Below are positions 141 to 56,932 of a DNA stretch of 64,000 nt, in pieces (position 1 is the first letter of the stretch; each line of letters starts with the position of its first letter). The DNA comes from an uncultured Gammaproteobacteria bacterium (GTDB lineage: Bacteria; Patescibacteriota; Patescibacteriia; Magasanikbacterales; GWA2-37-8). The position numbers were made by a program, and so were the translations under genes. The stretch is from contig CAZHTA010000002.1 in the NCBI GenBank assembly GCA_964535515.1, forward strand, positions 684-64,683. Direction: 5' to 3'. A model generated the notes under the pieces. It was not told the DNA's origin. It saw only the letters and a program-made list of their open reading frames with translations, and did not search any database.

Positions 141-806
141 TCATTTAGATAATCGTCCGATATCTGCATAGATTTCTATCTATATAGATACCGCTCGGTT
201 ACCGCGCACCGAGGGGGGCCCTCCATCTGGGCTTTGGTATCAAGCGCGTCCTTTCTTTGGATCATCCCATACCTTGGCAGCGTTCGCTGTATGGGAGGTC
301 GGCCAGCTACGTGTGTAAGCTGGGCCACGCAAGTGGTTACTCGAACGCTCTCCTGCCTATTGCCACGCTCTCCAGGCAATCGGTGTACGACGACTTCGGT
401 CGTTGAGTAGGGAGAAACCAACGGAATCGTTGGGAGCAAAAATGGATCAGCACACTGATCCGACTCGTGGTTGGGCAAGCTTCGTCCGACCAACGAGAAC
501 ACTGGGTTCCTGCAAGCAGGGAGCAATTCTGCTTCAGGACGGGCCAGACGATTCTGGCAGTTTCCACCCTGACCTCGGGGGCATGCTCGCGACTACCGCG
601 TCGTGTAGACCATCGGTCGGAATGGCCAACCCCTCCTCTCTCGAGGAGGACACGCCGTCGACACGGTCTAGGGAACTCTAAAGCTCGAGGTAGGGACAAC
701 TACGGGTCCCGGGCCGACGTGTGAGTCGGTCTCTGCGTACGACTGGGATCGGAGGGGGCGCCGACAGCGCCCCCTCCATCCCCAAATTCTCATTGTTTTT
801 TTCTTG
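141..806 (+). ncRNA. candidate large structured ncRNA (unclassified), GC-rich, no credible ORF
   Basis: GC-rich block in an AT-rich genome with many local hairpins, including ACGAC-UUCG-GUCGU, CCUCCUC-ucuc-GAGGAGG and an 11-bp GGAGGGGGCGC/GCGCCCCCUCC stem. All six-frame ORFs overlap each other and are low-complexity. Promoter upstream and T-run/terminators downstream. Confidence 0.4.
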
Positions 807-829
807 AAAGAGAATAGTGAAAAATAAAA

Positions 830-858
830 AATTCCGTTAATAGCGGAATTTTTTGTTT
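830..858 (+). terminator. intrinsic terminator (AATTCCG-loop-CGGAATT then TTTTGTTT)
   Basis: Perfect 7-bp stem directly followed by a T-run; lies downstream of the GC-rich transcript and of an earlier GC hairpin (745-783) plus T7 run (796-802). Confidence 0.5.
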
Positions 859-906
859 CAAATTAATAACCTACTTTTTTACCAGCTAAAAAATTAAAAA
901 CAGATA

Positions 907-935
907 TTGACTCTCAAATATTTTTTTGTTACTAT
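907..935 (+). promoter_or_regulatory. sigma70-like promoter TTGACT-17nt-TACTAT for GC-rich small ORF
   Basis: Hexamers read directly; AGGGGA Shine-Dalgarno about 8 nt upstream of ATG at 968. Confidence 0.4.
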
Positions 936-967
936 CATACCCGGAAGAAAAATCTAGGGGACTCCAC

Positions 968-1297
968 ATGGCATTCGCTGACGCCAAATCCTTGATAAAG
1001 CCACTCACACTGCAAGATGCAGAGCTGTACGTCGGCAACCACAGACCGACAAAGGGTCGGATCGTGAGCCACTCAGAAAACACCAGAGGGCCGCTGTCTG
1101 GCATCATCGCCATTCAGTTGAAACTCCCAAACGGTGACTCCTACCACTGCGCCCCACTGACCGATCCGCTTGGCCTGAGGAAAGTCAACGAAGAGTTCTC
1201 GGTGACCCTGGAACTACGGGGCCGAACCATCCACCTAGAAATCAGCTCAGAACGGTACAACCGGCATGGCGCCAACAAGTCCAGCCACACCTTCTGA
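968..1297 (+). CDS. hypothetical protein (109 aa), GC-rich, foreign-looking composition
   Basis: ORF track frame (track start TTG 926; ATG at 968 has an SD). GC-rich codons. No recognisable domain. Followed by a terminator. Confidence 0.45.
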   Translation: MAFADAKSLIKPLTLQDAELYVGNHRPTKGRIVSHSENTRGPLSGIIAIQLKLPNGDSYHCAPLTDPLGLRKVNEEFSVTLELRGRTIHLEISSERYNRHGANKSSHTF

Positions 1298-1322
1298 TCT
1301 TCTTCCACTTCGGAGGACACAC

Positions 1323-3558: not shown

Positions 3559-6500
3559 ATGCCTATTCGAAGAATAATAAGGGGGAAGATAAAAGCAGAA
3601 AAACCAACTAAACCGGTAGAAGAAAAAGAGGAAAAAATTGAGATTGAACCAGAAATAATAAAAGCTACAATAACCCATAAAGGAACTAAGGAAAGTAAAA
3701 CTTCCTCAGAATACAGCGCTAAGAATATTACGGTTTTGGAAGGATTAGAAGCGGTACGTCGCCGACCTGGCATGTATATTGGTTCTACTGGTCCAGCTGG
3801 TTTACACCATCTTATCTGGGAAGTTGTCGACAACTCAGTCGACGAAGCTATGGCTGGCCACTGCGATCGTATTGAAGTAACTCTGCTCCCCGACCACATG
3901 GTAGAAGTACGTGATAATGGTCGTGGTATCCCAGTTGATATCCACCCTCAACAAGGCGTAAGTGCCTTGGAAGTTATTTTAACCAAACTACATGCTGGTG
4001 GTAAATTTGGTAATGGTGGCTATAAAATTTCTGGCGGTTTGCACGGTGTAGGTGTTACAGTTGTAAACGCTCTCTCTTCTTACTTAAAAGCTGAGGTTCA
4101 CCTTGGTGGAAAAATTTGGGAACAAGAATACACAGCTGGTAATCCACAAAAAAAAGTTAGGGCCGTTGGTACTTGTAAAGATACAGGTACCACTATTACC
4201 TTCCGAGCCGATGACACTATTTTTGAAACAACTAATTATGAATGGAAGGCGATCGTTGACCACCTACGTCAATATGCTTACCTTTCTAAAGGATTACATT
4301 TCATAATCTCCGATAAACGTAGTCCAGAAGAAAAAGCCGTTGATAAAACAGCAATCAGTTTCCCTAATCCAACTTACCAGTTTTACTTTGAAGGTGGTGT
4401 GGCTTCTTATGTTCGTTATATCAATCACAACAAAGAAGCTAAAGGAGAAAACATCTTTTACGCTGACAAAGAAGCGGACGACGTTAATGTCGAAATTGCT
4501 TTACAGTACAGCGAGGATTACACTGAATCACTTTTTGCTTTTACCAACAATATTCATAATCCTGATGGCGGTACCCACGTTCAAGGTTTCCGCACTGCTC
4601 TAACACGCGTCTTAAACAGTTATGCTCGTAACAAAAATATTTTAAAAGAGAAAGACGCCAACCTAACCGGCGAAGACGTACGCGAGGGTTTGAATGCTGT
4701 CATTTCCATTAAAATACGCGAACCACAATTTGAAGGACAAACAAAATCCAAATTAGGCAATACTGAAGCTAAAACAGCAGTTGAAACAATCATGGGTGAA
4801 GAATTTACCATCTTCTTGGAAGAACATCCTAAGGATGCCGAGGCCATTATTGGTAAATGTTTACTCGCCAGCCGTGCTCGCAATGCTGCCAAAATCGCGC
4901 GTGATGCCATTTTGCGCAAAGGTGCTCTAGAAGGATTTACTCTACCAGGCAAACTAGCGGACTGCTCTTCGCGTGATGCTGAAATTTCTGAATTGTACAT
5001 TGTTGAGGGCGACAGTGCGGGCGGATGTTTTGATGGAAATACCAAAGTTGCGTTGACTGATGGACGTAGCTTGTCATTTATAAAATTAGCAGAAGAATGG
5101 GAACAAGGTAAAACAAACTACTGTTACACAATAAAAAACAATGGCGAAATTGGTATTGAAAAAATATTACACCCACGCATTACCAAGAAAAACGCCACCG
5201 TAATTAAAATCACACTAGATAATGATGAAGAATTGATTTGTACCCCAGATCACAAATTTATGTTACGTGACGGTAGTTACGTCCAAGCTAAAGATCTAAA
5301 ATCCGACATTAGCTTGATGCCTCTCTACCGAAAAACTTCTGTTATAGGAGGTCGTATTACAATAGATGGATACGAGATGGTTCTAAACACAAATAGTAGA
5401 TGGAAATTTACTCATCTTCTTGCTGACGAATATAATTTAACACAAAATGTATATCCTCAAATTGAGAACGGACATAAACATCACAAAGATTTTAATAAAC
5501 TGAACAACAACCCAGATAACATAATCCGTTTGTCTAAAGAAGACCATTTACAAATTCACCGCGAACAGGCGCACAAAACTCTCCATCGTCCAGATTCTAT
5601 TGCTAAATGTAACGAAATTAAACGTTCGGCAATTTATAGAAAAAAAATCTCCGACACGATGAAAAATCTTGGTCCGATGTTAAGTGCCCGAGCCAAAAAA
5701 CAATGGCAAAACGAGGAATATAAAAAATTCATGACGCATAAATTTTTGGAATTTTATAATAACAACGCTGAATACCGAGAAAAAAATAACGAGCTGTTAA
5801 ATAAAATACAAAAAGAGTATTGGGGCAACCTAAACAACCGGACAACACAAGCTGAGCGTGTTAAGGAATCTTTTAAGAACCACCCCGACAGAAAAAAATG
5901 GTTAAGTGAATTAGCAAAAAACCAGTGGAGCAGTGCCGAACTCTTAAATTGGCGCGCACAACAAACCACCAAACAATGGACACCTGAATTTCGCACTAAA
6001 CGTCAACAAGCTTACGCCAAAACATATCTTCAACACAGCTTGTCCTTCGCTAAAACACTAGCCGAACGTGGATTAAATTTCATTTCCACTTACAACCAAG
6101 AAAGAAGCGCTTTGCCAAAACGTAATAATAACATTGTAAAATTTGAAACATTATTAAATCGTTTTTTTGCTGGCGACCAAAATCGATTAGTCGAAGCAGT
6201 GAACAACTTCAACCATAAAATTGTCAGAATAGAAAAAGTCACCAAAAAAGTTGACGTATACGATATTGAGGTGCCACACACCCACAACTTCGCTCTAGCA
6301 AGTGGCATTTTCGTACACAACAGCGCCAAACAAGGCCGCAACCGCGAATTTCAAGCCATTCTCCCACTACGCGGTAAAGTATTAAACGTAGAACGCGCAC
6401 GTCTGGACAAGATCTTAGCTAACAACGAATTGAAATCTCTAATTATTGCAATCGGCACTAATATTGGTGAACAATTCGATATTACTAAGTTACGTTATCA

Positions 6501-7053
6501 TCGTATCATTATCATGACCGATGCGGACGTTGATGGTGCCCACATCCGTACTTTACTTTTAACTTTCTTTTACCGCCATTTCCCTGAACTAGTAAACAAT
6601 GGTCATATATATATTGCCCAACCACCACTTTACAGTGTTAAAACTGGTAAAGAAATAAAATATGCTTACAATGATGAAGAAAAAGAATTGCTCCTAGCCG
6701 AATTAAGTAAAAACAAATCTGCTAAGGCTGAAGCAAAACAGAAAAAAGAAGAAGCTGAGGAAGAAGTACCAGCTGAAGAAAACGGTGAAGAAGGCGGAGA
6801 TGCCCAAGCTGAGTCAATTTTAGTGGGTGGAGTAAAAGTTAACATCCAACGTTACAAAGGTTTGGGAGAAATGAACCCGGAACAACTCTGGGAAACTACG
6901 ATGAATCCAGAAAAACGTTTGATGAAACAAGTAACAGTAGAAGACGCCGGACTAGCTAATGAAACCTTTGAAATTTTAATGGGCGAAGATGTCGAGCAAA
7001 GAAAAAAATTCATCCAGACCAACGCCAAATCCGTAAGTAATTTGGATGTATAA
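3559..7053 (+). CDS. gyrB: DNA gyrase subunit B, interrupted in-frame by an intein (extein plus intein = 1164 aa); about 45-aa N-terminal extension
   Basis: GHKL ATPase motifs (LEGLEAVRRRPGMYIGS, GLHHLIWEVVDNSVDE), the TOPRIM motif EGDSAGG split from SAKQGRNREFQAILPLRGKVLNVE, and the C-terminal tail. Confidence 0.9.
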   Translation: MPIRRIIRGKIKAEKPTKPVEEKEEKIEIEPEIIKATITHKGTKESKTSSEYSAKNITVLEGLEAVRRRPGMYIGSTGPAGLHHLIWEVVDNSVDEAMAGHCDRIEVTLLPDHMVEVRDNGRGIPVDIHPQQGVSALEVILTKLHAGGKFGNGGYKISGGLHGVGVTVVNALSSYLKAEVHLGGKIWEQEYTAGNPQKKVRAVGTCKDTGTTITFRADDTIFETTNYEWKAIVDHLRQYAYLSKGLHFIISDKRSPEEKAVDKTAISFPNPTYQFYFEGGVASYVRYINHNKEAKGENIFYADKEADDVNVEIALQYSEDYTESLFAFTNNIHNPDGGTHVQGFRTALTRVLNSYARNKNILKEKDANLTGEDVREGLNAVISIKIREPQFEGQTKSKLGNTEAKTAVETIMGEEFTIFLEEHPKDAEAIIGKCLLASRARNAAKIARDAILRKGALEGFTLPGKLADCSSRDAEISELYIVEGDSAGGCFDGNTKVALTDGRSLSFIKLAEEWEQGKTNYCYTIKNNGEIGIEKILHPRITKKNATVIKITLDNDEELICTPDHKFMLRDGSYVQAKDLKSDISLMPLYRKTSVIGGRITIDGYEMVLNTNSRWKFTHLLADEYNLTQNVYPQIENGHKHHKDFNKLNNNPDNIIRLSKEDHLQIHREQAHKTLHRPDSIAKCNEIKRSAIYRKKISDTMKNLGPMLSARAKKQWQNEEYKKFMTHKFLEFYNNNAEYREKNNELLNKIQKEYWGNLNNRTTQAERVKESFKNHPDRKKWLSELAKNQWSSAELLNWRAQQTTKQWTPEFRTKRQQAYAKTYLQHSLSFAKTLAERGLNFISTYNQERSALPKRNNNIVKFETLLNRFFAGDQNRLVEAVNNFNHKIVRIEKVTKKVDVYDIEVPHTHNFALASGIFVHNSAKQGRNREFQAILPLRGKVLNVERARLDKILANNELKSLIIAIGTNIGEQFDITKLRYHRIIIMTDADVDGAHIRTLLLTFFYRHFPELVNNGHIYIAQPPLYSVKTGKEIKYAYNDEEKELLLAELSKNKSAKAEAKQKKEEAEEEVPAEENGEEGGDAQAESILVGGVKVNIQRYKGLGEMNPEQLWETTMNPEKRLMKQVTVEDAGLANETFEILMGEDVEQRKKFIQTNAKSVSNLDV
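5026..6321 (+). other. intein (432 aa) inside gyrB with HNH-type homing endonuclease domain
   Basis: Starts with Cys directly after GDSAGG. Block B TPDH. Ends VHN followed by extein Ser (SAKQGR). Internal NGHKHHKDFNKLNNNPDNIIRLSKEDHLQIH resembles an HNH motif. Frame verified (5026-3559 and 6322-3559 both divisible by 3). Confidence 0.8.
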
Positions 7054-7090
7054 GAAACAATTAAACATAATAAAAAACCACCTCGCAAAA

Positions 7091-7122
7091 GATGGTTTTT
7101 TATTTCCTTCTATTTTGAACTA
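7091..7122 (+). terminator. intrinsic terminator after gyrB (AACCACC...GATGGTT then T6)
   Basis: Hairpin with one G-U pair followed by a T-run. Confidence 0.5.
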
Positions 7123-7180
7123 ATTCAAAACAAAAGGGACTTGGCGGTCCAGCTGTGCCCGTAAAGGGAGCTGGACCGCC
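7122..7180 (-). terminator. intrinsic terminator for minus-strand GC-rich operon (12-bp GGCGGTCCAGCT/AGCTGGACCGCC stem then T-run on minus strand)
   Basis: Perfect 12-bp inverted repeat at 7143-7180; the minus strand continues as aagtcccttttgtttt. Confidence 0.55.
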
Positions 7181-7264
7181 GAGATAGGAATGACGAGACG
7201 AACGACTCACCCCGATCATCCGACAGCCGCGAAGGCCGAGCAGACGAATCGAGGGGTGTGACGT

Positions 7265-7750
7265 TTAGTTTAGATCGGGGAGATCGAAAAGGCCGAGGAG
7301 CACACCGAATCCGTAAGCGACCCCATTGGTGACAATGGCGGCGCATAACCCCCACCAGATGGCCTCGAGGAAGTATCCGCACGAGAACCATGCGGAGTAG
7401 TCCTTCCCGTCTCCAGCCGCGAGCGCCCAGCGCCACCCATAGTTAGCGGCGAGGAGATGGAGCAACACCGCAACCACAGTGACCACCACCGCCAACGGCC
7501 GGCGGGCGTCGCTGTCCAAGTTGCTGCGGAGGACCAGTGCCCAAACAACCAGGGACACCACTGGCCCGATTGCGAAGGCCATGACCACGCCGAACCAATC
7601 GACTCCATCCAGCTTCGCGCTGCACCAGACGGAATCATCGTACCCGCCACCACCGGCCAACGCAAGGCCGGGGAGAAGGAACATTACCGTGAAGGCCACG
7701 GCGACCATCGACACCAGCAAGCAGGTTTTCCAGGACCTGTTCAAGTTCAC
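7265..7750 (-). CDS. small integral membrane protein (about 4 TM), GC-rich, holin-like by size and topology
   Basis: ORF track. Hydrophobic segments. ATGA start/stop overlap with the upstream CHAP gene (translational coupling). High-GC codon usage. Confidence 0.55.
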   Translation of the reverse strand: MNLNRSWKTCLLVSMVAVAFTVMFLLPGLALAGGGGYDDSVWCSAKLDGVDWFGVVMAFAIGPVVSLVVWALVLRSNLDSDARRPLAVVVTVVAVLLHLLAANYGWRWALAAGDGKDYSAWFSCGYFLEAIWWGLCAAIVTNGVAYGFGVLLGLFDLPDLN

Positions 7751-9159
7751 CTCCTAGACCAGCCCACGCAGGGCAAGTCTTCGATTGTTCCGCGAACCCA
7801 CCAGAACCCTCCGACGAATTCCTGGAGGGTGGCGCACTCGTACCAGCGTGAGGTATTTTGCTGAACGACACACACGGCATCGTCCTTCACCTCAACGACA
7901 ATCGCGACATGCCCAGGGGCACGATGGCTGTTAGCCGCCACACTCTCCCGACCGTCACGATCAAAGATCAGGATATCATTCACCGCCGGCTTCACCGGCG
8001 AACCGTTCAGGAGCACCGACAAGCCCTTAGCGTTTCCGCTATAGAAATAGCTGTCAGCGTGACCGGTGCGCTCCATGTTCCTATGACCCAGGACGGTGGC
8101 GTAGAACCGATTGACCAGCTCCACACACTGCCACCGTTGGCCATAGCCAGACCGCTCCGATTCACCTTCACCGCGGGGGTGCTGATGAATCTCCGCCCCA
8201 CGATAAAGGCCAACGACCGCTCCCTGCTCCGCTTTGATACCAGGCGGAACAAGGACCACCACACCATTCTTGTCTCCGATACGTGGGAACTGCTCCCCAC
8301 GACCAAAGATAAACGACATGACGGTATCGGTGTAATACCCGAACCGACCGTTGCCGGCCAATCCGAGCCACCCACTTGCCTCCCCGAAGGTCGGCCGATA
8401 GTGAGTGAACACCGACGCGGCACTCGACTTTTCCTCATTGTCCATCTGGATGCCCGAGAGCTCCCAGATGTAAACGAGATCGAAGCCAAGCAACGATATA
8501 TCGGACAATTTTTCCACCCGGAACGGATCCGTGCCGAAGCGCTTACCGTTCAAGTGAAAAAAGTGATAACCCCACCACTCGCCCTGATACTCGAAAGCCA
8601 GAACGAGGTGTGTGTTGATTCCAGCCTTTGCCGCAAGAACTTGCGGGTCCATGCGACTCTGCTGAAAGTGATAGCCGGCCACGTAAAGCCGACTCGAGGA
8701 CAACACCTTGGAGAGATCACTGTCGAACGGGACCAATTCCTTAATCTTGTCCTCAGTTGAGGTTGAGAAATCCTTGGTCCGATCAAAAACTTTGCGGAGG
8801 TCGTCCGCATTGTCCTGACCGAACCGCCAAGCCACCGTCACCTCGAGCTTTTGTCTGCCCAAAATGAAGTTAGCAGCCTGGATCACGGCCGAAGCGCAAC
8901 GCTCGTTGTCCCACATCGACTGCGGGATAAACGCCGGCACCGGGCCGTTACCCGGACGGTCCACAAGACTATCCAGGAGTGATCGCACTTCTACCGGTGC
9001 GCGCGGGCTAAGGGGGAACTTACTCCCCCATTCTTCTTCCACATGGTGACGAGCCACGCAGAAGATCGTTACGAGAACCATCACGACCGAAGTCGCAAAA
9101 ATCCCCGTCACAAAAATCGCGTTGCGCACTCGTCTGCGCTCGGTCCGGCTCAGTCTCAC
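7747..9159 (-). CDS. membrane-anchored protein with C-terminal CHAP-domain peptidoglycan amidase/peptidase, GC-rich (GTG start)
   Basis: N-terminal TM (IFVTGIFATSVVMVLVTIFCV). C-terminal QCVELVNRFY...GHVAIVVEV matches the CHAP catalytic Cys/His pattern. GAGGTGA SD before GTG. About 60% GC by eye. Confidence 0.6.
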   Translation of the reverse strand: MRLSRTERRRVRNAIFVTGIFATSVVMVLVTIFCVARHHVEEEWGSKFPLSPRAPVEVRSLLDSLVDRPGNGPVPAFIPQSMWDNERCASAVIQAANFILGRQKLEVTVAWRFGQDNADDLRKVFDRTKDFSTSTEDKIKELVPFDSDLSKVLSSSRLYVAGYHFQQSRMDPQVLAAKAGINTHLVLAFEYQGEWWGYHFFHLNGKRFGTDPFRVEKLSDISLLGFDLVYIWELSGIQMDNEEKSSAASVFTHYRPTFGEASGWLGLAGNGRFGYYTDTVMSFIFGRGEQFPRIGDKNGVVVLVPPGIKAEQGAVVGLYRGAEIHQHPRGEGESERSGYGQRWQCVELVNRFYATVLGHRNMERTGHADSYFYSGNAKGLSVLLNGSPVKPAVNDILIFDRDGRESVAANSHRAPGHVAIVVEVKDDAVCVVQQNTSRWYECATLQEFVGGFWWVRGTIEDLPCVGWSRR

Positions 9160-9370
9160 CTGTCACCTCGTGATTGTGTGGGTTGTTGACGTTTAGCAAA
9201 TATCTCCACAGCGATTGGCATCGCTGTCATTCCTATCAATTGTCAAAGATCTGTTTCCAAACAGCTAAAAGCCTCAGCTTCCGGCTATTCAAAGAAACAG
9301 ATAATAATAGCATAAATTAGCGAAAAAGTCAATATCCTGTCGTCTGTTATTACTATCCCCATTGAATATG

Positions 9371-9399: not shown

Positions 9400-9449
9400 T
9401 AAATTGTTAATAAATCGGCCCTGGGCCGTTTTTAAATACTTAAAAAAAT

Positions 9450-10759: not shown

Positions 10760-11860
10760 TTAAACAATTAACATCGCATCCCCAAAACTATAGAACCGAT
10801 ACTTGGCTTCAACTGCTTTTTGATAACATTCTAAAGTAAATTCCCTATCACCAACAAAAGCCGACACCAACATTATCAAGGTTGATTCAGGTAAATGAAA
10901 ATTGGTAATTAAAGCATCCACCACCTTAAATTCAAACCCTGGCTTAATAAAAATATTAATATCTCCACTAAACGCTTCCAACCGTCCGCGCGTAACAAAA
11001 ACCCCTTCCAACGACCGGACAGCGGTTGTACCAACCACCACCACTCGTCTACCCTCTTCCTTGGCGATGTTTATCAACTGTGCATTTTTATCACTCAACT
11101 CCACCCATTCCGGATGCATTTTATGTTCTTCAACATTCTCGGTTTTAACTGGTAAAAATGTTCCTAAACCAACATGCAAAGTAACCTCTGCAAATTCTAC
11201 CCCCTGTTTTTTTAATTGTTCAATTAACTCAGGAGTGAAATGAAAACCCGCTGTTGGTGCCGCTACTGATCCTTCAACTTTAGCATAAACGGTTTGATAA
11301 CGCTCATCCAAATTCAACCCTGATACCTTACCAGCCATTTCTTTAATATATGGTGGCGTTGGCACCTCGCCATACTTATTAGCCTTTGCTCTCACTGTTA
11401 TATCATCATCTTTAAATTGTACTAGCACTGTACCATCCTCTTCTTTGGCAATCACTTCTGCAGAAAAATCTTCGGCAAAAACCACCTTCATTCCTAAGCG
11501 CAATTTCTTTCCTGGTTTAGCCAACACTTTCCACACCCCAAAATTTTCCATTGGCCGAACTAAAAATATTTCAATACTTGGTGCATTAAAAATTCGATCG
11601 GTTAAATCCTTCTTTTTAAAATCAAAAACATCTTCATCTAAAACTAACACTCCTTTTAGGCGTGCCTTAAATACTTTGGAGTTGTTCCAAACCAACAAAT
11701 CACCCGGACGTAAATATTCGCCAATATTAAAAAACTGACGATGGCTAATTTCTTTTGTTGAACGATTAATTACCAACAAACGTGATTGATCGCGTCTTTC
11801 TGCTGGTGTTTGGGCGATTAATTCTTTCGGTAAATTGTAATTAAAATCCGATGTTAACAT
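10760..11860 (-). CDS. queA: S-adenosylmethionine:tRNA ribosyltransferase-isomerase
   Basis: N-terminal FNYNLPKELIAQTPAERRDQSRLLV and overall length typical of QueA. Confidence 0.85.
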   Translation of the reverse strand: MLTSDFNYNLPKELIAQTPAERRDQSRLLVINRSTKEISHRQFFNIGEYLRPGDLLVWNNSKVFKARLKGVLVLDEDVFDFKKKDLTDRIFNAPSIEIFLVRPMENFGVWKVLAKPGKKLRLGMKVVFAEDFSAEVIAKEEDGTVLVQFKDDDITVRAKANKYGEVPTPPYIKEMAGKVSGLNLDERYQTVYAKVEGSVAAPTAGFHFTPELIEQLKKQGVEFAEVTLHVGLGTFLPVKTENVEEHKMHPEWVELSDKNAQLINIAKEEGRRVVVVGTTAVRSLEGVFVTRGRLEAFSGDINIFIKPGFEFKVVDALITNFHLPESTLIMLVSAFVGDREFTLECYQKAVEAKYRFYSFGDAMLIV

Positions 11861-11863
11861 ATA

Positions 11864-12721
11864 TTAACGCAAATACTTAGCCACATTACGGTTGTGCTCA
11901 TCTAATGTTTTAGCATAGTGCATACCACCCTCTGTGTCGCTCATAAAATACCAATAATCATTTTTCGTTGGGTAAATAGTGGCCTCAATTGCTTTTAAAC
12001 TTGGATTACCAATTGGCCCAAGTGGTAGACCAGGATATTTATAGGTGTTATAAAAAGAATCCAACTGACGATCTGCAGCGTTAATCGCTGGATCATTTTT
12101 ACCGGTAACATAATTTACTGTAGCACAAGATTGCAGTGCCCACCTCATTTTATTACGTCGCCAAAAAATATCTGCTACCAACCTCATATCCTCTGTCGTT
12201 GGCGCTTCCTTTTCTACCACTGATGCCATAGTGAGTACTTCAAAAAAATTCTTGTTTTGTTTTTTTATATCCGCTCGCATTTCTAGAGTAATTCGATCAT
12301 CTAAAACAGCAAATATTTTTTTAATAACTTCTTCTGGTTTGGCATCAGCATAAACACGATAAGTTTCCGGTAAAAAATATCCTTCATATGAAACATTACT
12401 AGTTTTACTATCAAACAACTCTGCCAAAGTACCAGTTGCTGCCCAACTTAATTCTGGCGCTACCACCCCTGATGCACGATAGTTTTTAGCTGGTTCACCT
12501 ACTAAAGAATACAACTCGTTATCATTTTTTATCAATCCTTTTTTAACCCAATCCGCTGCAATCTGACGCAAATTCCACCCCGGAATTATTGTGATGTTGA
12601 TTTCCTCTCGTGGTGGTGGTGGAATATACTTAGGACGGCTAAAGTAGCGATAACCAAAAAAACTCAATACTATTAATATGATTATTGCAAACAAAAAAGA
12701 ATTAATTCTTTTGATATTCAT
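11864..12721 (-). CDS. mltG: endolytic murein transglycosylase MltG (YceG family)
   Basis: N-terminal TM. YNTYKYPGLPLGPIGNPS motif is characteristic of MltG. Confidence 0.8.
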   Translation of the reverse strand: MNIKRINSFLFAIIILIVLSFFGYRYFSRPKYIPPPPREEINITIIPGWNLRQIAADWVKKGLIKNDNELYSLVGEPAKNYRASGVVAPELSWAATGTLAELFDSKTSNVSYEGYFLPETYRVYADAKPEEVIKKIFAVLDDRITLEMRADIKKQNKNFFEVLTMASVVEKEAPTTEDMRLVADIFWRRNKMRWALQSCATVNYVTGKNDPAINAADRQLDSFYNTYKYPGLPLGPIGNPSLKAIEATIYPTKNDYWYFMSDTEGGMHYAKTLDEHNRNVAKYLR

Positions 12722-14047: not shown

Positions 14048-14120
14048 GCGCCTGTAGCTCAGGGGTTAGAGCACTGCCCTTATAAGGCAGGGGTCGATGG
14101 TTCGAAGCCATCCAGGCGCA
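14048..14120 (+). tRNA. tRNA-Ile with anticodon UAU (reads AUA)
   Basis: Cloverleaf folded by hand: acceptor GCGCCUG/CAGGCGC, D-arm GCUC..GAGC, anticodon stem CUGCC/GGCAG with loop cuUAUaa, T-arm GAUGG-UUCGAAG-CCAUC. No encoded CCA. Confidence 0.7.
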
Positions 14121-14128
14121 CTAAACAT

Positions 14129-27162: not shown

Positions 27163-27504
27163 CTAGCCCTCAGAGAAGACCACATCATACTCATCCACGT
27201 CACGATCAGGGATGTCGAAGAAGGCGATGGTCTCCGAGAACAGCCGCTTCAAGGTGAAACGGTCGCTGGACAAGACCGGCTCCCAGTTCAACAGCGAAAA
27301 AGTGGTCGTCCTCCTGAACCGATAATCGCTGTCATGATGCCAACGCAGAGTCAGGCCCGCCGGATCAAACCCTGACCCACCCTCCACTCGACCGCTGCTT
27401 ATCGTCCCATCGGAGCGATACCCAACGATCCTGGCACGAAGCGCGAGATCATCTTCGTGCTCTTCGCAAAACCTGCGCACTTCCCCCCAAGTGGACATCT
27501 CCAT
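27163..27504 (-). CDS. hypothetical protein (113 aa), GC-rich island C
   Basis: ORF track. GC-rich codons unlike neighbours. No TM and no recognisable domain. Confidence 0.45.
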   Translation of the reverse strand: MEMSTWGEVRRFCEEHEDDLALRARIVGYRSDGTISSGRVEGGSGFDPAGLTLRWHHDSDYRFRRTTTFSLLNWEPVLSSDRFTLKRLFSETIAFFDIPDRDVDEYDVVFSEG

Positions 27505-28676: not shown

Positions 28677-28774
28677 ACAGAAAAACACAAAAAATCCCCA
28701 TAAAATATGGGGATTTTTGATATCCAACCTTGACAAGCACTAAATTTTATGATACTCTAAATTTGTTCATTATT

Positions 28775-29115
28775 GGTAATCGCCCCAACCTAGTTGGGAG
28801 AGGAAAGTCCGAACATCTTCCAATGCAAATTGGAAAAAAGGATAGTGGGTAACACCCACCCCCCGATCCGCAAGGTACCGGGGCGGGAAAGCGGCACAGA
28901 GACTATACTATCCCGGCTTACCCGGGAGAAAGGTGAAAAGCGCATGGGGGTTTTGGTTCTAGATCAAAGCTACTATGCCCCATCCACAGCAATGTGGAAT
29001 GGTGCCAAGCCCTATCTGATGCAAGAGCAGCCTTGTGACTGGAATACCTAGTCGCTTGGAAAAGTTCGCTCGCAATGATTCTGATGGTAACATCAGGACT
29101 AGATAAATGATTACC
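28775..29115 (+). ncRNA. rnpB: RNase P RNA (bacterial type)
   Basis: P4 signature GAGGAAAGUCCGAACA near the 5' end and CCCGGCUUACCCGGG further on. P1 formed by GGUAAUC (28775-28781) with GAUUACC (29109-29115). Promoter-like TTGACA at about 28731. The overlapping 85-aa ORF is spurious. Confidence 0.7.
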
Positions 29116-29230
29116 TCCTGTTAAAAAGACTTAGGCCAAAATATACTGAAAAATCCAATACGCGGAAAGTATCAGTGTAATATGGTTCGGTCTTACAACA
29201 GAAGACAAAATTCGGCTTATAATAATGAAC

Positions 29231-29263
29231 AACAAAAATCCCGATTTATTCGGGATTTTTGTT
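29231..29263. terminator. bidirectional intrinsic terminator (AAAAATCCCGA-ttta-TTCGGGATTTTTG)
   Basis: Near-copy of the rplS/uvrA terminator motif; overlaps the stop codon of the minus-strand ORF 29246-29557. Confidence 0.5.
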
Positions 29264-37342: not shown

Positions 37343-37921
37343 TCATGAAATTAGCGCCTCCTCGATGGCGGCCAAGAAACGGGAGTGCTCGGTCCACAAA
37401 GGGCCGTTGTCGTAGGTTTGTCCTTCTTTTGATACACGACCGAGTGTGTGGTAGTAGCCGCGTTCTTCGAACAGAGAAGCCACGAATTCGATCTCGTCAT
37501 CAGACCAAGCTGAGCCGAGTTCGATGACATCGACTCCACGTTGGACTTCGGGATAGTCAGCCCCGAACGCGAGCAGCTCGCGGAAGGTCGCGGGACGAAG
37601 GTGTCTCCGCCTGAAGCGCGCGAGAATTTCTTCGGTGCGCGCTTTTCTCTTCATGTCAACGAGCACCAAGTCTGTGGTGCTCGCGACACCCCTTTCTTCA
37701 GCACTGTCGAAGCGGGCCATATTCACTCTGATATCGCAGCTGCTGTAGTCCCCAGCGCGTACCAACTCCGCGGTAGGCTTGCGGGGATCGTTGTCGATCC
37801 GGTAGATCCCCTTTTCTTCGACGAGGCGTCGCCTTAGAAATCGGCGAACCTCATCCGGGCACTTCGTTAGTAGTGCCTGGTCTTTCTCCGAGAACAGCTG
37901 AAAGTACGCTTCGGGTTCCAT
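37343..37921 (-). CDS. hypothetical protein (192 aa), GC-rich island D
   Basis: ORF track. High-GC codons. No TM and no recognisable domain. Confidence 0.45.
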   Translation of the reverse strand: MEPEAYFQLFSEKDQALLTKCPDEVRRFLRRRLVEEKGIYRIDNDPRKPTAELVRAGDYSSCDIRVNMARFDSAEERGVASTTDLVLVDMKRKARTEEILARFRRRHLRPATFRELLAFGADYPEVQRGVDVIELGSAWSDDEIEFVASLFEERGYYHTLGRVSKEGQTYDNGPLWTEHSRFLAAIEEALIS

Positions 37922-56126: not shown

Positions 56127-56163
56127 AAAAAAATCCACCTGCCAAATTAGGCAGGTGGTTTAA
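56127..56163. terminator. bidirectional intrinsic terminator (CCACCTGCC-aaatta-GGCAGGTGG) shared by radA(+) and the island E genes(-)
   Basis: A-run upstream gives a T7 run on the minus strand; TTTAATT on the plus strand. Confidence 0.55.
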
Positions 56164-56282
56164 TTCCAGGGAGGCCGACGACGGACACATCCAGTTCGTC
56201 GCGTACATGTACGCATTGAACCTTCAGCATCCGTCGCCGGCTATGAGGAGGGAGAACCGTAGAACCTAAGGCCAAAGACGCC

Positions 56283-56540
56283 TCAGGCAGTCTCGTCGGT
56301 CGGAGCGACGACAGCCTGAGCAGCGGCCTGCTGCTCAATCTCGTACTCGTACACCGCTCTGTGTACGACGCTGACCGGAATCAGCGCCAAGGGCGGTGTC
56401 TCATCATGACCCCGCTTCACGAGCGCGCACACGAAGTGTTGCTCACGAAACGTTCCTCCTATTTTGGGAGGCGGGCCCGGGCGCGTCACATCGACAGCCC
56501 ACTTGTCACCTTTCTTGGTCGTGAAGAACTTATCGCCCAT
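56283..56540 (-). CDS. small hypothetical protein (85 aa), GC-rich island E, downstream member of an overlapping pair
   Basis: ORF track. ATG with GAGG 6 nt upstream. Overlaps the upstream gene by 11 nt. N-terminus KKGDKWAVDV is faintly DUF2188-like. Confidence 0.45.
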   Translation of the reverse strand: MGDKFFTTKKGDKWAVDVTRPGPPPKIGGTFREQHFVCALVKRGHDETPPLALIPVSVVHRAVYEYEIEQQAAAQAVVAPTDETA

Positions 56541-56763
56541 CTCGAGCCTCTTTCGCGGCAGGTGGCACCGGAACCACCAAGTTCATGGCGTTCATGCGTC
56601 CGAAACGCGCCCCGTTTTTGGGGTTGAACACCAAGACCTCGACCGCCTGCTGACCCTCGACGAAGTCGACGTGTGCTGCTGCGACGAGGAGCTTCTGCTC
56701 CCGGTCGCTGCGCTTATACACAACGACCTTCCCGTCGAGTCGCGGATCTCTATTCTTCGCCAC
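56530..56763 (-). CDS. small hypothetical protein (about 77 aa, GTG start), GC-rich island E, upstream member of an overlapping pair
   Basis: Start moved to GTG at 56763, which has a strong GAGGAGG SD 5 nt upstream (the track Met at 56883 lies in AT-rich sequence). Candidate TTGACT-17-TACGAT promoter on the minus strand at about 56850-56880. Confidence 0.4.
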   Translation of the reverse strand: MAKNRDPRLDGKVVVYKRSDREQKLLVAAAHVDFVEGQQAVEVLVFNPKNGARFGRMNAMNLVVPVPPAAKEARDGR

Positions 56764-56932
56764 TTCTTCCTCCTCGGAAATCCAACCCAGCCAAAATGGC
56801 GGGAAAAGCGAGGCGTCGTGCCTCTCAGTTCCACATGGGTTAAAAACAGAAATAATCGTATCAAAAAACCAGCAAAAAGTCAATGCTTTGCCGGTTTTAA
56901 TGGAAAAAATATATTTTAAAATTTTTGTCTCA

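Follow-up and report, generated by a model that had tools for sequence, protein, structure and literature searches.

The 64-kb window analysed here (W; contig CAZHTA010000002.1) carries a sharp GC-rich island with two minus-strand genes, one for a predicted membrane-anchored enzyme (9159-7747) and the other for a small, predicted exported partner protein (7750/7744-7265), together with their own promoter and a strong terminator. We conclude that this cassette is a long-resident chromosomal module rather than a recent import and that it is found only in Patescibacteria, a statement that counts metagenome-assembled genomes (MAGs) titled Gammaproteobacteria as Patescibacteria by flank identity. 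The explanation that we favour, with slightly more confidence than doubt, is a resident two-gene envelope peptidase module whose GC-richness comes about through selection on the structure of its messenger RNA (mRNA). What is new here is the predicted two-domain cysteine-peptidase architecture together with its fast-evolving, Gly/Cys-motif partner; the locus further stands out because a GC island has persisted for long throughout the family, in company with an mRNA of exceptional structure. Homologous loci are labelled L001, L002 and so on, and homologous proteins P0018 and so on.

A GC-rich island at long-occupied chromosomal sites

The GC content is 0.55-0.61 across approximately 7140-9240, versus 0.35-0.42 outside, and the two genes themselves have a GC content of 0.57-0.61 versus about 0.38 in the flanks. 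As a result, the GC-rich block that a first-pass annotation, made from the sequence letters alone, had described as unlike its gyrB and secE neighbours was borne out, with GC at third codon positions (GC3) of 0.67 and 0.78 in the two genes versus a window median of 0.34. The excess recurs throughout the family, since at each of the 14 loci examined the enzyme gene had a higher GC3 than its flanks (by +0.22 on average and by +0.05 at the least), and the downstream open reading frames (ORFs) of other loci are GC-rich as well. The relatives outside Patescibacteria showed a GC3 excess of about 0 to +0.03, with +0.05 at a Methanosarcina locus.

The surroundings of the cassette are likewise conserved. 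The order nusG-secE/cassette/gyrB was found in at least six assemblies, namely in W, L001, L060, L011 and L012, and in L061 on partial flanks only, while L002, L006, L018 and L021, which are monophyletic in the enzyme tree, share the order rnhB/SWIB/cassette/leuS. Indeed, housekeeping genes (gyrB, secE, nusG, leuS and similar) flank the cassette at 20 of the 20 loci examined. The flank proteins of W and L001 are 73-96% identical with saturated synonymous sites (synonymous divergence, dS, 1.1-2.7), and those of L002 and L006 are 57-88% identical (dS 0.7-2.9). Because the same sites are occupied across genomes while the synonymous sites of the flanks are saturated, we argue for long residence.

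The first-pass annotation had instead proposed a recent acquisition from a high-GC or phage donor. The saturated flanks oppose this, and searches of homologs, GTDB contigs and cluster representatives yielded no relative of the full-length enzyme outside Patescibacteria, and thus no donor. Furthermore, orthologs with the same GC excess occupy the syntenic nusG-secE/gyrB site in L001, L060, L011 and L012, so that the GC-richness could not be upheld as a foreign signal. No integrase or transfer RNA (tRNA) gene adjoins the cassette in the window. When the enzyme was compared by tblastn with 50,697 phage records and with 72,556 plasmids, neither set gave a match, and a pattern scan of IMG/VR detected no relative; the partner gene, too, had no counterpart in GenBank phages, plasmids or IMG/VR. 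BFVD returned only weak single-domain CHAP-fold matches (E ~1e-4 or weaker), and the best PHROG match (E 1e-3) covered the CHAP fold alone. A transposon with terminal inverted repeats was also considered, as a perfect 12-nucleotide (nt) repeat (7183-7194, GATAGGAATGAC; 9226-9237, GTCATTCCTATC) brackets the island. We read this repeat as chance, because five other loci contain nothing comparable and our own estimate puts the number expected at random at about 0.2.

Folding of the enzyme mRNA

Native folding energies were calculated with ViennaRNA in 120-nt windows and compared with null models, among which the permutation of synonymous codons keeps both the protein and the codon usage. Against dinucleotide shuffles within windows, the enzyme mRNA gave a mean z of -2.07, versus -0.74 for the antisense strand and +0.19 to -0.56 for neighbouring genes, and five of six orthologs gave z values of -1.45 to -2.58. 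Against synonymous permutation, z ranged from -5 to -9 over seven orthologs; the gene-level values for six of them were -6.1 (W), -7.6, -9.1, -7.8, -4.9 and -6.4, corresponding to a folding excess of about -5 to -8 kcal/mol per 120 nt, whereas queA gave -1.5, gyrB -2.2 and all of the controls +0.4 to -2.2. When the 50 window ORFs with a length of 100 amino acids (aa) or more were ranked, the enzyme gene came out as the extreme, with a z of -7.4; the 43 ordinary genes among them averaged a folding excess of -0.90 +/- 1.37 kcal/mol. With a local z of -1.5, the RNase P RNA of the window is no more strongly folded by this measure than the enzyme mRNA. The excess recurred in most of the orthologs tested, down to 35% protein identity, and it was also present in split and CHAP-only forms from Patescibacteria (-2.5 to -8.3).

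The excess was larger on the sense strand in eight of eight orthologs (in W, -6.0 sense versus -1.2 antisense), a bias expected from G-U pairing in RNA and not from a DNA palindrome. For the pair L001/L060, the dS of the enzyme gene (CHAP) was 0.32, versus 1.0-1.1 for gyrB and queA and 0.46-0.49 for nusG and rplK, while its nonsynonymous divergence (dN) exceeded that of all four of these genes. The nucleotide identity of the enzyme gene is about equal to the amino-acid identity of its product. Both the low dS and this near-equality fit a constraint on synonymous sites.

Three other accounts of the excess were rejected. GC content alone does not produce it, as GC-rich flank genes in GC-richer hosts (synonymous-permutation z +0.2, -0.8 and -1.9) and GC-rich CHAP homologs from Dormiibacterota, Myxococcota and Manganitrophus (z +0.1, +0.4 and -0.3) lie at around zero. 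An artefact of codon periodicity or composition is opposed by the survival of the excess against within-window dinucleotide shuffles, codon shuffles and synonymous permutations. One localized RNA element conserved within the enzyme gene is opposed by the structure-excess profiles of the orthologs, which are uncorrelated (rho ~0; an out-of-frame slice of L012 was disregarded). The conserved property is general foldedness, and not one element.

A predicted membrane-anchored enzyme with a CHAP domain and a candidate papain-like domain

The enzyme gene (7747..9159, minus strand) encodes 470 aa from a GTG start, with the ribosome-binding site GAGG (9169-9166) six nt upstream; this start, its ribosome-binding site and the two minus-strand ORFs, of 470 and 161 aa, are all present as first annotated. 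The annotation of an N-terminal transmembrane helix and a C-terminal CHAP domain was also sustained, by one hydrophobic segment at residues 15-33 and by a PF05257 match above the cut-off. The signal-anchor, with its helix at residues ~15-36 (9052..9117, minus strand), is preceded by the basic tail MRLSRTERRRVRN, and the AlphaFold model of the 470-aa enzyme (predicted local distance difference test, pLDDT, 85.4; predicted template-modelling score, pTM, 0.80) places a long helix at residues 5-47. Under the positive-inside rule, an established rule for membrane topology, this tail implies an N-in anchor with both catalytic domains outside.

The C-terminal domain (residues ~308-470; 7750..8238, minus strand) was assigned by Pfam and profile searches to the glutathionylspermidine (Gsp)-amidase type of CHAP domain. 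Pfam CHAP (PF05257) covers residues 338-435 with an E of 3.9e-10 and 40.5 bits against a cut-off of 26, and a precomputed match to it exists in 16 of 16 full-length homologs; the motifs QCVELVNRFY and GHVAIVVEV are both present in the translation. C345 is invariant, H417 is nearly so (the single exception is a truncated sequence), and Q434 is invariant or nearly so. In the model, C345 opens the helix 345-356 and H417 opens the strand 417-424. The best NCBIfam match of the enzyme is the amidase part of glutathionylspermidine synthetase/amidase, and when the sequences of the whole PDB were queried with a profile built from 17 family members, only Gsp and trypanothione synthetase-amidases were detected (E 1.6e-14 to 8e-10). 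On these alignments, the domain is best classified as a true CHAP member, nearest to the Gsp-amidase branch rather than to the lysins. Almost all of the fold neighbours of the enzyme model are wall hydrolases.

The preceding region, a putative papain/NlpC-P60-like N-domain at residues ~50-300 (8260..9012, minus strand), is an undescribed domain without a Pfam match or a PDB sequence match. It is nonetheless highly conserved, and its invariant residues in the family alignment are C88, D171, H184, H199 and D227. It was considered as a duplicate of the CHAP domain, but hhalign aligned the shared linker only and revealed no sequence relation between the two domains. We suggest that the N-domain is a very divergent NlpC/P60-like domain with the candidate triad Cys88-His184-His199; the corresponding candidate in the CHAP domain is Cys345-His417-Gln434. 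The combination of this putative papain-like domain, which is undescribed, with a predicted exported CHAP domain of the Gsp-amidase kind is a new architecture, absent from Pfam.

A fast-evolving partner protein

The partner gene (7265..7750, minus strand) encodes 161 aa from the GTG at 7750 or 159 aa from the TTG at 7744. Its start overlaps the stop of the enzyme gene in the sequence GTGA, and the ATGA overlap given in the first-pass annotation was a misreading. The TTG at 7744, two codons downstream of the GTG, appears to be the more likely start, because AGGAGG (7755-7750) ends five nt before it. With respect to the 161-aa protein with about four helices that had been annotated, hydropathy analysis supported four hydrophobic segments (11-29, 55-73, 86-104 and 137-155); the first of these, however, resembles a signal peptide, and the length is likelier to be 159 aa. 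The protein reads as a signal-peptide-like segment that ends in ALA and is followed by GGGGYDDSVWC and by three transmembrane helices.

Across 13 loci, the ORFs directly downstream of the enzyme gene share one feature, namely a signal-peptide-like start with an AxA-type site followed by a glycine run, GGGG(G)YDD... or DGG..., usually with a Cys or CxC within ~10-15 residues. The remainder differs: the partner has three transmembrane helices in the window, L001, L060, L061 and L012, one in L009, L016, L017, L019 and L020, and is reduced to peptides of 44-45 aa in L006 and L018, while in L002 and L021 a coiled-coil precedes a Cys-flanked LysM-like module. The same module also occurs as a C-terminal extension of the enzyme itself in P0031, P0034, P0037 and P0039; its presence in either protein links the two gene products and points to peptidoglycan. 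Divergence is rapid, as the partners of L001 and L060 are 57% identical (dN 0.36, dN/dS 0.43) while their NusG proteins are 99.4% identical.

Searches with the partner against Pfam, NCBIfam and PHROG gave nothing significant and no holin family (best E 0.047-0.77, to unrelated or function-unknown families), those against the PADLOC defence and immunity families only a 2TM effector at E 0.066, and a word-index search no homolog but the protein itself. A defence system was likewise sought with PADLOC, and nothing was found. The partner would most likely be a modulator, inhibitor or tether of the enzyme.

Distribution of the family

A word-index search retrieved 16 full-length homologs of the enzyme at 34-55% identity, and a profile of the N-domain detected 46 proteins, 32 of them below 1e-30, among 1.84 billion cluster representatives; since only 46 were found in so many, the N-domain is rare. 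In GTDB contigs, sampled as one genome per species, full-length members occur in Magasanikiibacteriota, Uhrbacteria, the Parcubacteria group and unclassified Patescibacteria MAGs. The window is closest to the Magasanikiibacteriota locus L012 (NusG 85%, L11 83%, GyrB 77%). Six cassette-bearing records (L011, L013, L018, L019, L020 and L022) are titled "uncultured Gammaproteobacteria". We read these titles as mislabels, because the flank proteins of L011, the only such MAG checked, match those of the window (NusG, L11 and GyrB 74-85% identical, NusG ~85%).

CHAP-only relatives with signal peptides occur in Uhrbacteria, and more distant ones in Nitrospirota/Manganitrophaceae, Myxococcota, Chloroflexota, Dormiibacterota and one Methanosarcina MAG. 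The CHAP-only relatives in other phyla retain EQN. P0018, the most distant CHAP relative in the word-index search, is fused to an L,D-transpeptidase domain. A split form was observed in L028 (6001-7594) and L032 (5851-7418), from Uhrbacteria/Patescibacteria, in which an N-domain ORF is followed by a CHAP ORF with its own signal peptide; the split form of L028 is without GC excess.

Operon layout and transcription signals

A promoter-like site lies at 9304..9332 (minus strand), with TTGACT, a 17-nt spacing and (TG)CTATTAT (10 of 12 matches in a consensus scan, extended -10). An alignment of four upstream regions showed that its -35 and extended -10 elements are kept in W, L001, L060 and L061. 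With a transcription start placed from this alignment and the sequence, the 5' untranslated leader would span 9160..9297 (minus strand, ~135 nt), and it contains a small conserved hairpin (CTGTT 9264-9260 / AACAG 9255-9251) and the conserved CTTTGACAAT at 9248-9239.

The GC-rich 3' untranslated region (7125..7264, minus strand), delimited by folding and sequence, ends in an intrinsic terminator. The perfect 12-bp GC hairpin that had been annotated at 7143-7180 was confirmed: its stem GGCGGTCCAGCT/AGCTGGACCGCC is followed by the U-rich tail CCCUUUUGUUUUG, its minimum free energy is -30.2 kcal/mol (z -5.1), and none of 200 shuffles was equally stable. L001 has an equivalent hairpin with the tail CTTTTGTTTTGAA. 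At the low-coordinate edge of the island, directly after gyrB, an AT-rich bidirectional hairpin (7069..7104) forms the gyrB terminator, with a counterpart also in L001. At the other side, a small GC hairpin, CGGCCCWGGGCCG at 9416-9428, lies between the divergent secE and CHAP promoters and is kept in all four related assemblies. A search for known RNA families in the island and its untranslated regions gave only sub-threshold terminator-like matches. An antisense 300-aa ORF at 7858-8760 (plus strand) was rejected as a gene, as it has no Pfam match and is read as a by-product of high GC3.

Other features of the window and related genomes

The gyrB gene (3559-7053, plus strand) contains an intein of ~432 aa (CFDGNT...VHN/S) at GyrB residues ~490-921. 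The 731-aa GyrB ortholog of L001 is without an intein and otherwise 90% identical, and that of L012 has a shorter intein (Pfam Intein_splicing). A tRNA-Ile gene with the anticodon TAT was detected by ARAGORN at 14048-14121 (plus strand).

Two further GC-rich islands, at 190-810 and 56150-56850, have a GC content of 0.55-0.63 and lack a convincing ORF. Both of their strands fold locally with a z of -1.6 to -1.9, a strength equal to that of the RNase P RNA (28764-29235), and no Rfam match above threshold was obtained; they are candidates for undescribed structured RNAs. Further small GC-rich ORFs lie at 27163-27504 (minus strand), 37343-37921 (minus strand) and 926-1297 (plus strand), with GC3 of 0.64-0.69 and no Pfam or PADLOC match. 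The 192-aa ORF of another GC island has a single homolog, at 71% identity. The GC-rich ORFs of 113 and 192 aa fold beyond their synonymous permutations, by about -3.5 and -4.6 kcal/mol per window. In L001, a GC-richer membrane ORF of 194 aa lies next to ftsW (11512-12096, minus strand), at the position that the first island takes up in the window (190-1310), and is non-homologous to that island; the ftsW-adjacent site thus appears to hold variable inserts.

Interpretation

We propose that a sigma-70-type promoter belonging to the operon would drive its transcription and that the resulting G+U-rich mRNA would be heavily folded, which probably limits translation, prolongs the life of the mRNA, or both. 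Selection would then act on mRNA structure, through expression level and/or stability, and the G+C enrichment would be a by-product. The N-terminal anchor would insert the enzyme so that its NlpC/P60-like and Gsp-amidase-like cysteine peptidases sit just outside the membrane, near the peptidoglycan peptides of the cell itself. There, it would most likely cut amide bonds in these peptides, either remodelling or opening the cell's own wall or processing wall peptides, a substrate that the fold neighbours suggest. The partner would be translationally coupled to the enzyme and exported, and cleavage of its signal peptide would expose an oligo-glycine/acidic/Cys end beside the membrane, which could regulate, inhibit or position the enzyme.

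Several of our observations weigh against this proposal. Regarding the mRNA, the folding profile is not positionally conserved, and the covariation is weak: 20 double changes versus 12.7 +/- 2.5 in shuffles, from three sequences and a structure derived from the same sequences. Inspection of the values shows no clear scaling of GC excess with folding excess among the orthologs; in L009 and L016, a GC excess is accompanied by a folding excess of only about -2 kcal/mol, and L028 has some structure excess while its GC excess is absent. Regarding the peptidase, AEQN of Gsp aligns with VQQN here, so that the triad Glu is replaced by Gln (Q434), and the Gsp enzymes, the closest relatives with a solved structure, have as their substrate glutathionylspermidine, a small-molecule amide, and not peptidoglycan. 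Regarding the partner, its architecture varies, with downstream ORFs of 44-181 aa and three, one or no transmembrane helices, and the LysM match of the L021 partner, at E 0.036, is below threshold. Finally, between W and L001 the enzyme (55% identical) and the partner (32%) are far more diverged than the flanks (73-96%), which allelic replacement would also explain. Because the profile is not conserved, the covariation is weak, and GC and folding do not scale, we hold the statement that selection on mRNA structure keeps the enzyme gene GC-rich at only roughly even odds.

Such replacement is central to the first rival explanation, in which the cassette belongs to a Patescibacteria gene pool and is swapped by homologous recombination between the conserved flanks, thereby keeping the composition of the pool. 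The process is likened to that at surface-antigen loci, and were the site a recombination hot spot, GC-biased gene conversion could raise its GC content further. Apart from the excess divergence between W and L001, it is favoured by the mosaic of L001, L060 and L061, in which long identical nucleotide stretches lie beside variable ones, by the loose tie between the GC3 of the enzyme gene and that of its host (r 0.50, p 0.07), and by the different GC-rich inserts that W and L001 carry at equivalent positions. However, the GC-rich donor pool was not found, and every family member is chromosomal and GC-richer than its chromosome. The leuS-site clade is monophyletic, with the enzyme divergence (51%) near that of its flanks (57-70%), and neither mobility genes nor consistent terminal repeats were seen. 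Moreover, recombination alone leaves the sense-biased RNA folding excess unexplained. We therefore consider this exchange unlikely, although it is the rival that best survives.

Somewhat more doubtful still is an antagonism pair, in which the enzyme is a weapon against the wall of a host or competitor at the contact site and the downstream protein is its cognate immunity protein or inhibitor. An amidase gene directly followed by that of a small exported protein is the arrangement expected of such a pair, and the very fast evolution of the partner, the raised dN of the enzyme, the patchy distribution (46 clusters among 1.84 billion representatives) and the presence of Tse1 and Tae3 among the fold neighbours are in line with it, as is the fact that Patescibacteria are commonly epibionts (PMC12102498). 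Against it, a true transmembrane helix and a short stalk hold the enzyme at the membrane of the cell that makes it. No secretion-system, delivery-domain or toxin-marker genes occur within ~6 kb at the loci with listed genes, and the partner has no defence or immunity family match.

We regard it as quite improbable that the enzyme is not a wall hydrolase at all and instead processes or ligates peptides or proteins, for example by cutting, or transferring onto, the N-terminal oligo-glycine of the partner in a sortase-like or Lpp-like wall attachment, or, in a variant, hydrolyses an extracellular gamma-glutamyl or glycyl amide conjugate. In its favour, Gsp and trypanothione amidases, whose mechanism passes through a thioester intermediate, are the nearest relatives, and the AxA site, Gly run and Cys are the sole conserved feature in most partners. 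Nevertheless, the N-terminus of the partner resembles an ordinary Sec signal peptide and not a double-glycine leader, most of the fold neighbours are wall hydrolases, and a LysM-like module is associated with the family.

The phage-derived lysis cassette of endolysin and holin proposed in the first-pass annotation, whether domesticated or a prophage remnant, is largely refuted and the least credible of these explanations, as the CHAP fold common to many endolysins, the compact operon with overlapping genes and the three transmembrane helices that the partner minus its signal peptide would have in this clade, like class I holins, are outweighed by the lack of relatives among the phage records, plasmids and IMG/VR and the weak single-domain CHAP matches in BFVD, by the housekeeping neighbours at all loci, by the enzyme's own Sec-type anchor, by a CHAP domain nearest to Gsp amidase and not to lysins, and by a partner whose holin role is unsupported because it has no holin family match and its orthologs in other lineages have one or no transmembrane helix.

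A resident envelope peptidase module under selection on mRNA structure thus remains our preferred explanation. The enzyme is a concrete candidate for the cutting or remodelling of peptidoglycan peptides at the surface of Magasanikiibacteriota/Uhrbacteria-type Patescibacteria, and its gene provides a coding region with a folding excess matching that of RNase P RNA. The locus is also a caution for genome scans, in which sharp GC islands in AT-rich genomes are normally read as horizontal transfer, while long residence is argued here. If selection on mRNA structure indeed holds a gene 15-20 GC points above its genome, the compositional methods for foreign DNA need a new control, and the module would be a tractable example for expression control in minimal, RNase-poor symbionts. 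As a tentative extension, which we think may well fail, the GC-rich islands of AT-rich Patescibacteria, of which this operon is the best-documented case, might mark a class of genes in whose mRNAs selection favours a density of folding like that of structured non-coding RNAs, and folding, rather than foreign origin, might keep these islands GC-rich in the long term. If so, hyper-structured mRNAs would constitute a gene-specific expression programme of very low translation, long life, or survival of RNases in stress, dormancy or infection, attached here to a wall enzyme that is potentially self-lytic and to the rapidly diverging protein encoded beside it. In the library searched, no paper tied Patescibacteria to CHAP domains or to comparable GC-rich islands.

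Comparison with known systems

The amidase domain of E. coli Gsp synthetase/amidase (PDB 3a30/2io7) and trypanothione synthetase-amidase (2vpm) belong to the same CHAP subfamily and are the closest relatives. The Cys and His of the E. coli triad (C59, H131 and E147) align with those of our enzyme, whereas its Glu is replaced by Gln. Gsp amidase is cytoplasmic and fused to an ATP-grasp synthetase, while the enzyme described here is predicted to be exported and membrane-tethered, lacks a synthetase, and places its CHAP domain after a second papain-like domain. The CHAP and NlpC/P60 hydrolases of Gram-positives and phages (PcsB, the CHAP domains of LysK/LysGH15, LytE, CwlO and MepS) have the papain-like fold in common with it; as here, their Cys stands at a helix N-terminus and their His on a strand, and they are extracytoplasmic and multi-domain.

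The VirB1-like two-domain hydrolases of monoderm conjugation open the cell's own wall locally (PMC12102498). TraG of pIP501, PrgK of pCF10, CwlT and Orf14 of Tn916 resemble our enzyme in combining an N-terminal anchor with two wall-hydrolase domains, one of which is CHAP or NlpC/P60, and Tn916-like hydrolases are among its fold matches. They differ in their type IV secretion system context, as neither virB4 nor other genes of such a system were found near any locus, and in their first domain, which is a lytic transglycosylase or muramidase there and a putative cysteine peptidase here. The Tae/Tai, Tse1/Tsi1 and LytE-IseA pairs likewise set a wall amidase beside a small exported protein, which in our cassette evolves fast. 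In our case, however, there is no secretion apparatus, the enzyme is anchored, and the partner is unrelated in sequence and often a short Gly/Cys peptide.

With respect to the mRNA, selection on local structure in bacterial coding regions and the setting of translation efficiency by ORF-wide structure are general phenomena. The cassette conforms to them in that native folds are stabler than synonymous permutations, and this across the ORF and not in one element. It differs in degree, with z values of -6 to -9 versus about -1 in typical genes, far outside the distribution of the window, and in that the folding goes together with a GC island whose surrounding genome is AT-rich and is kept across the family down to 35% protein identity.

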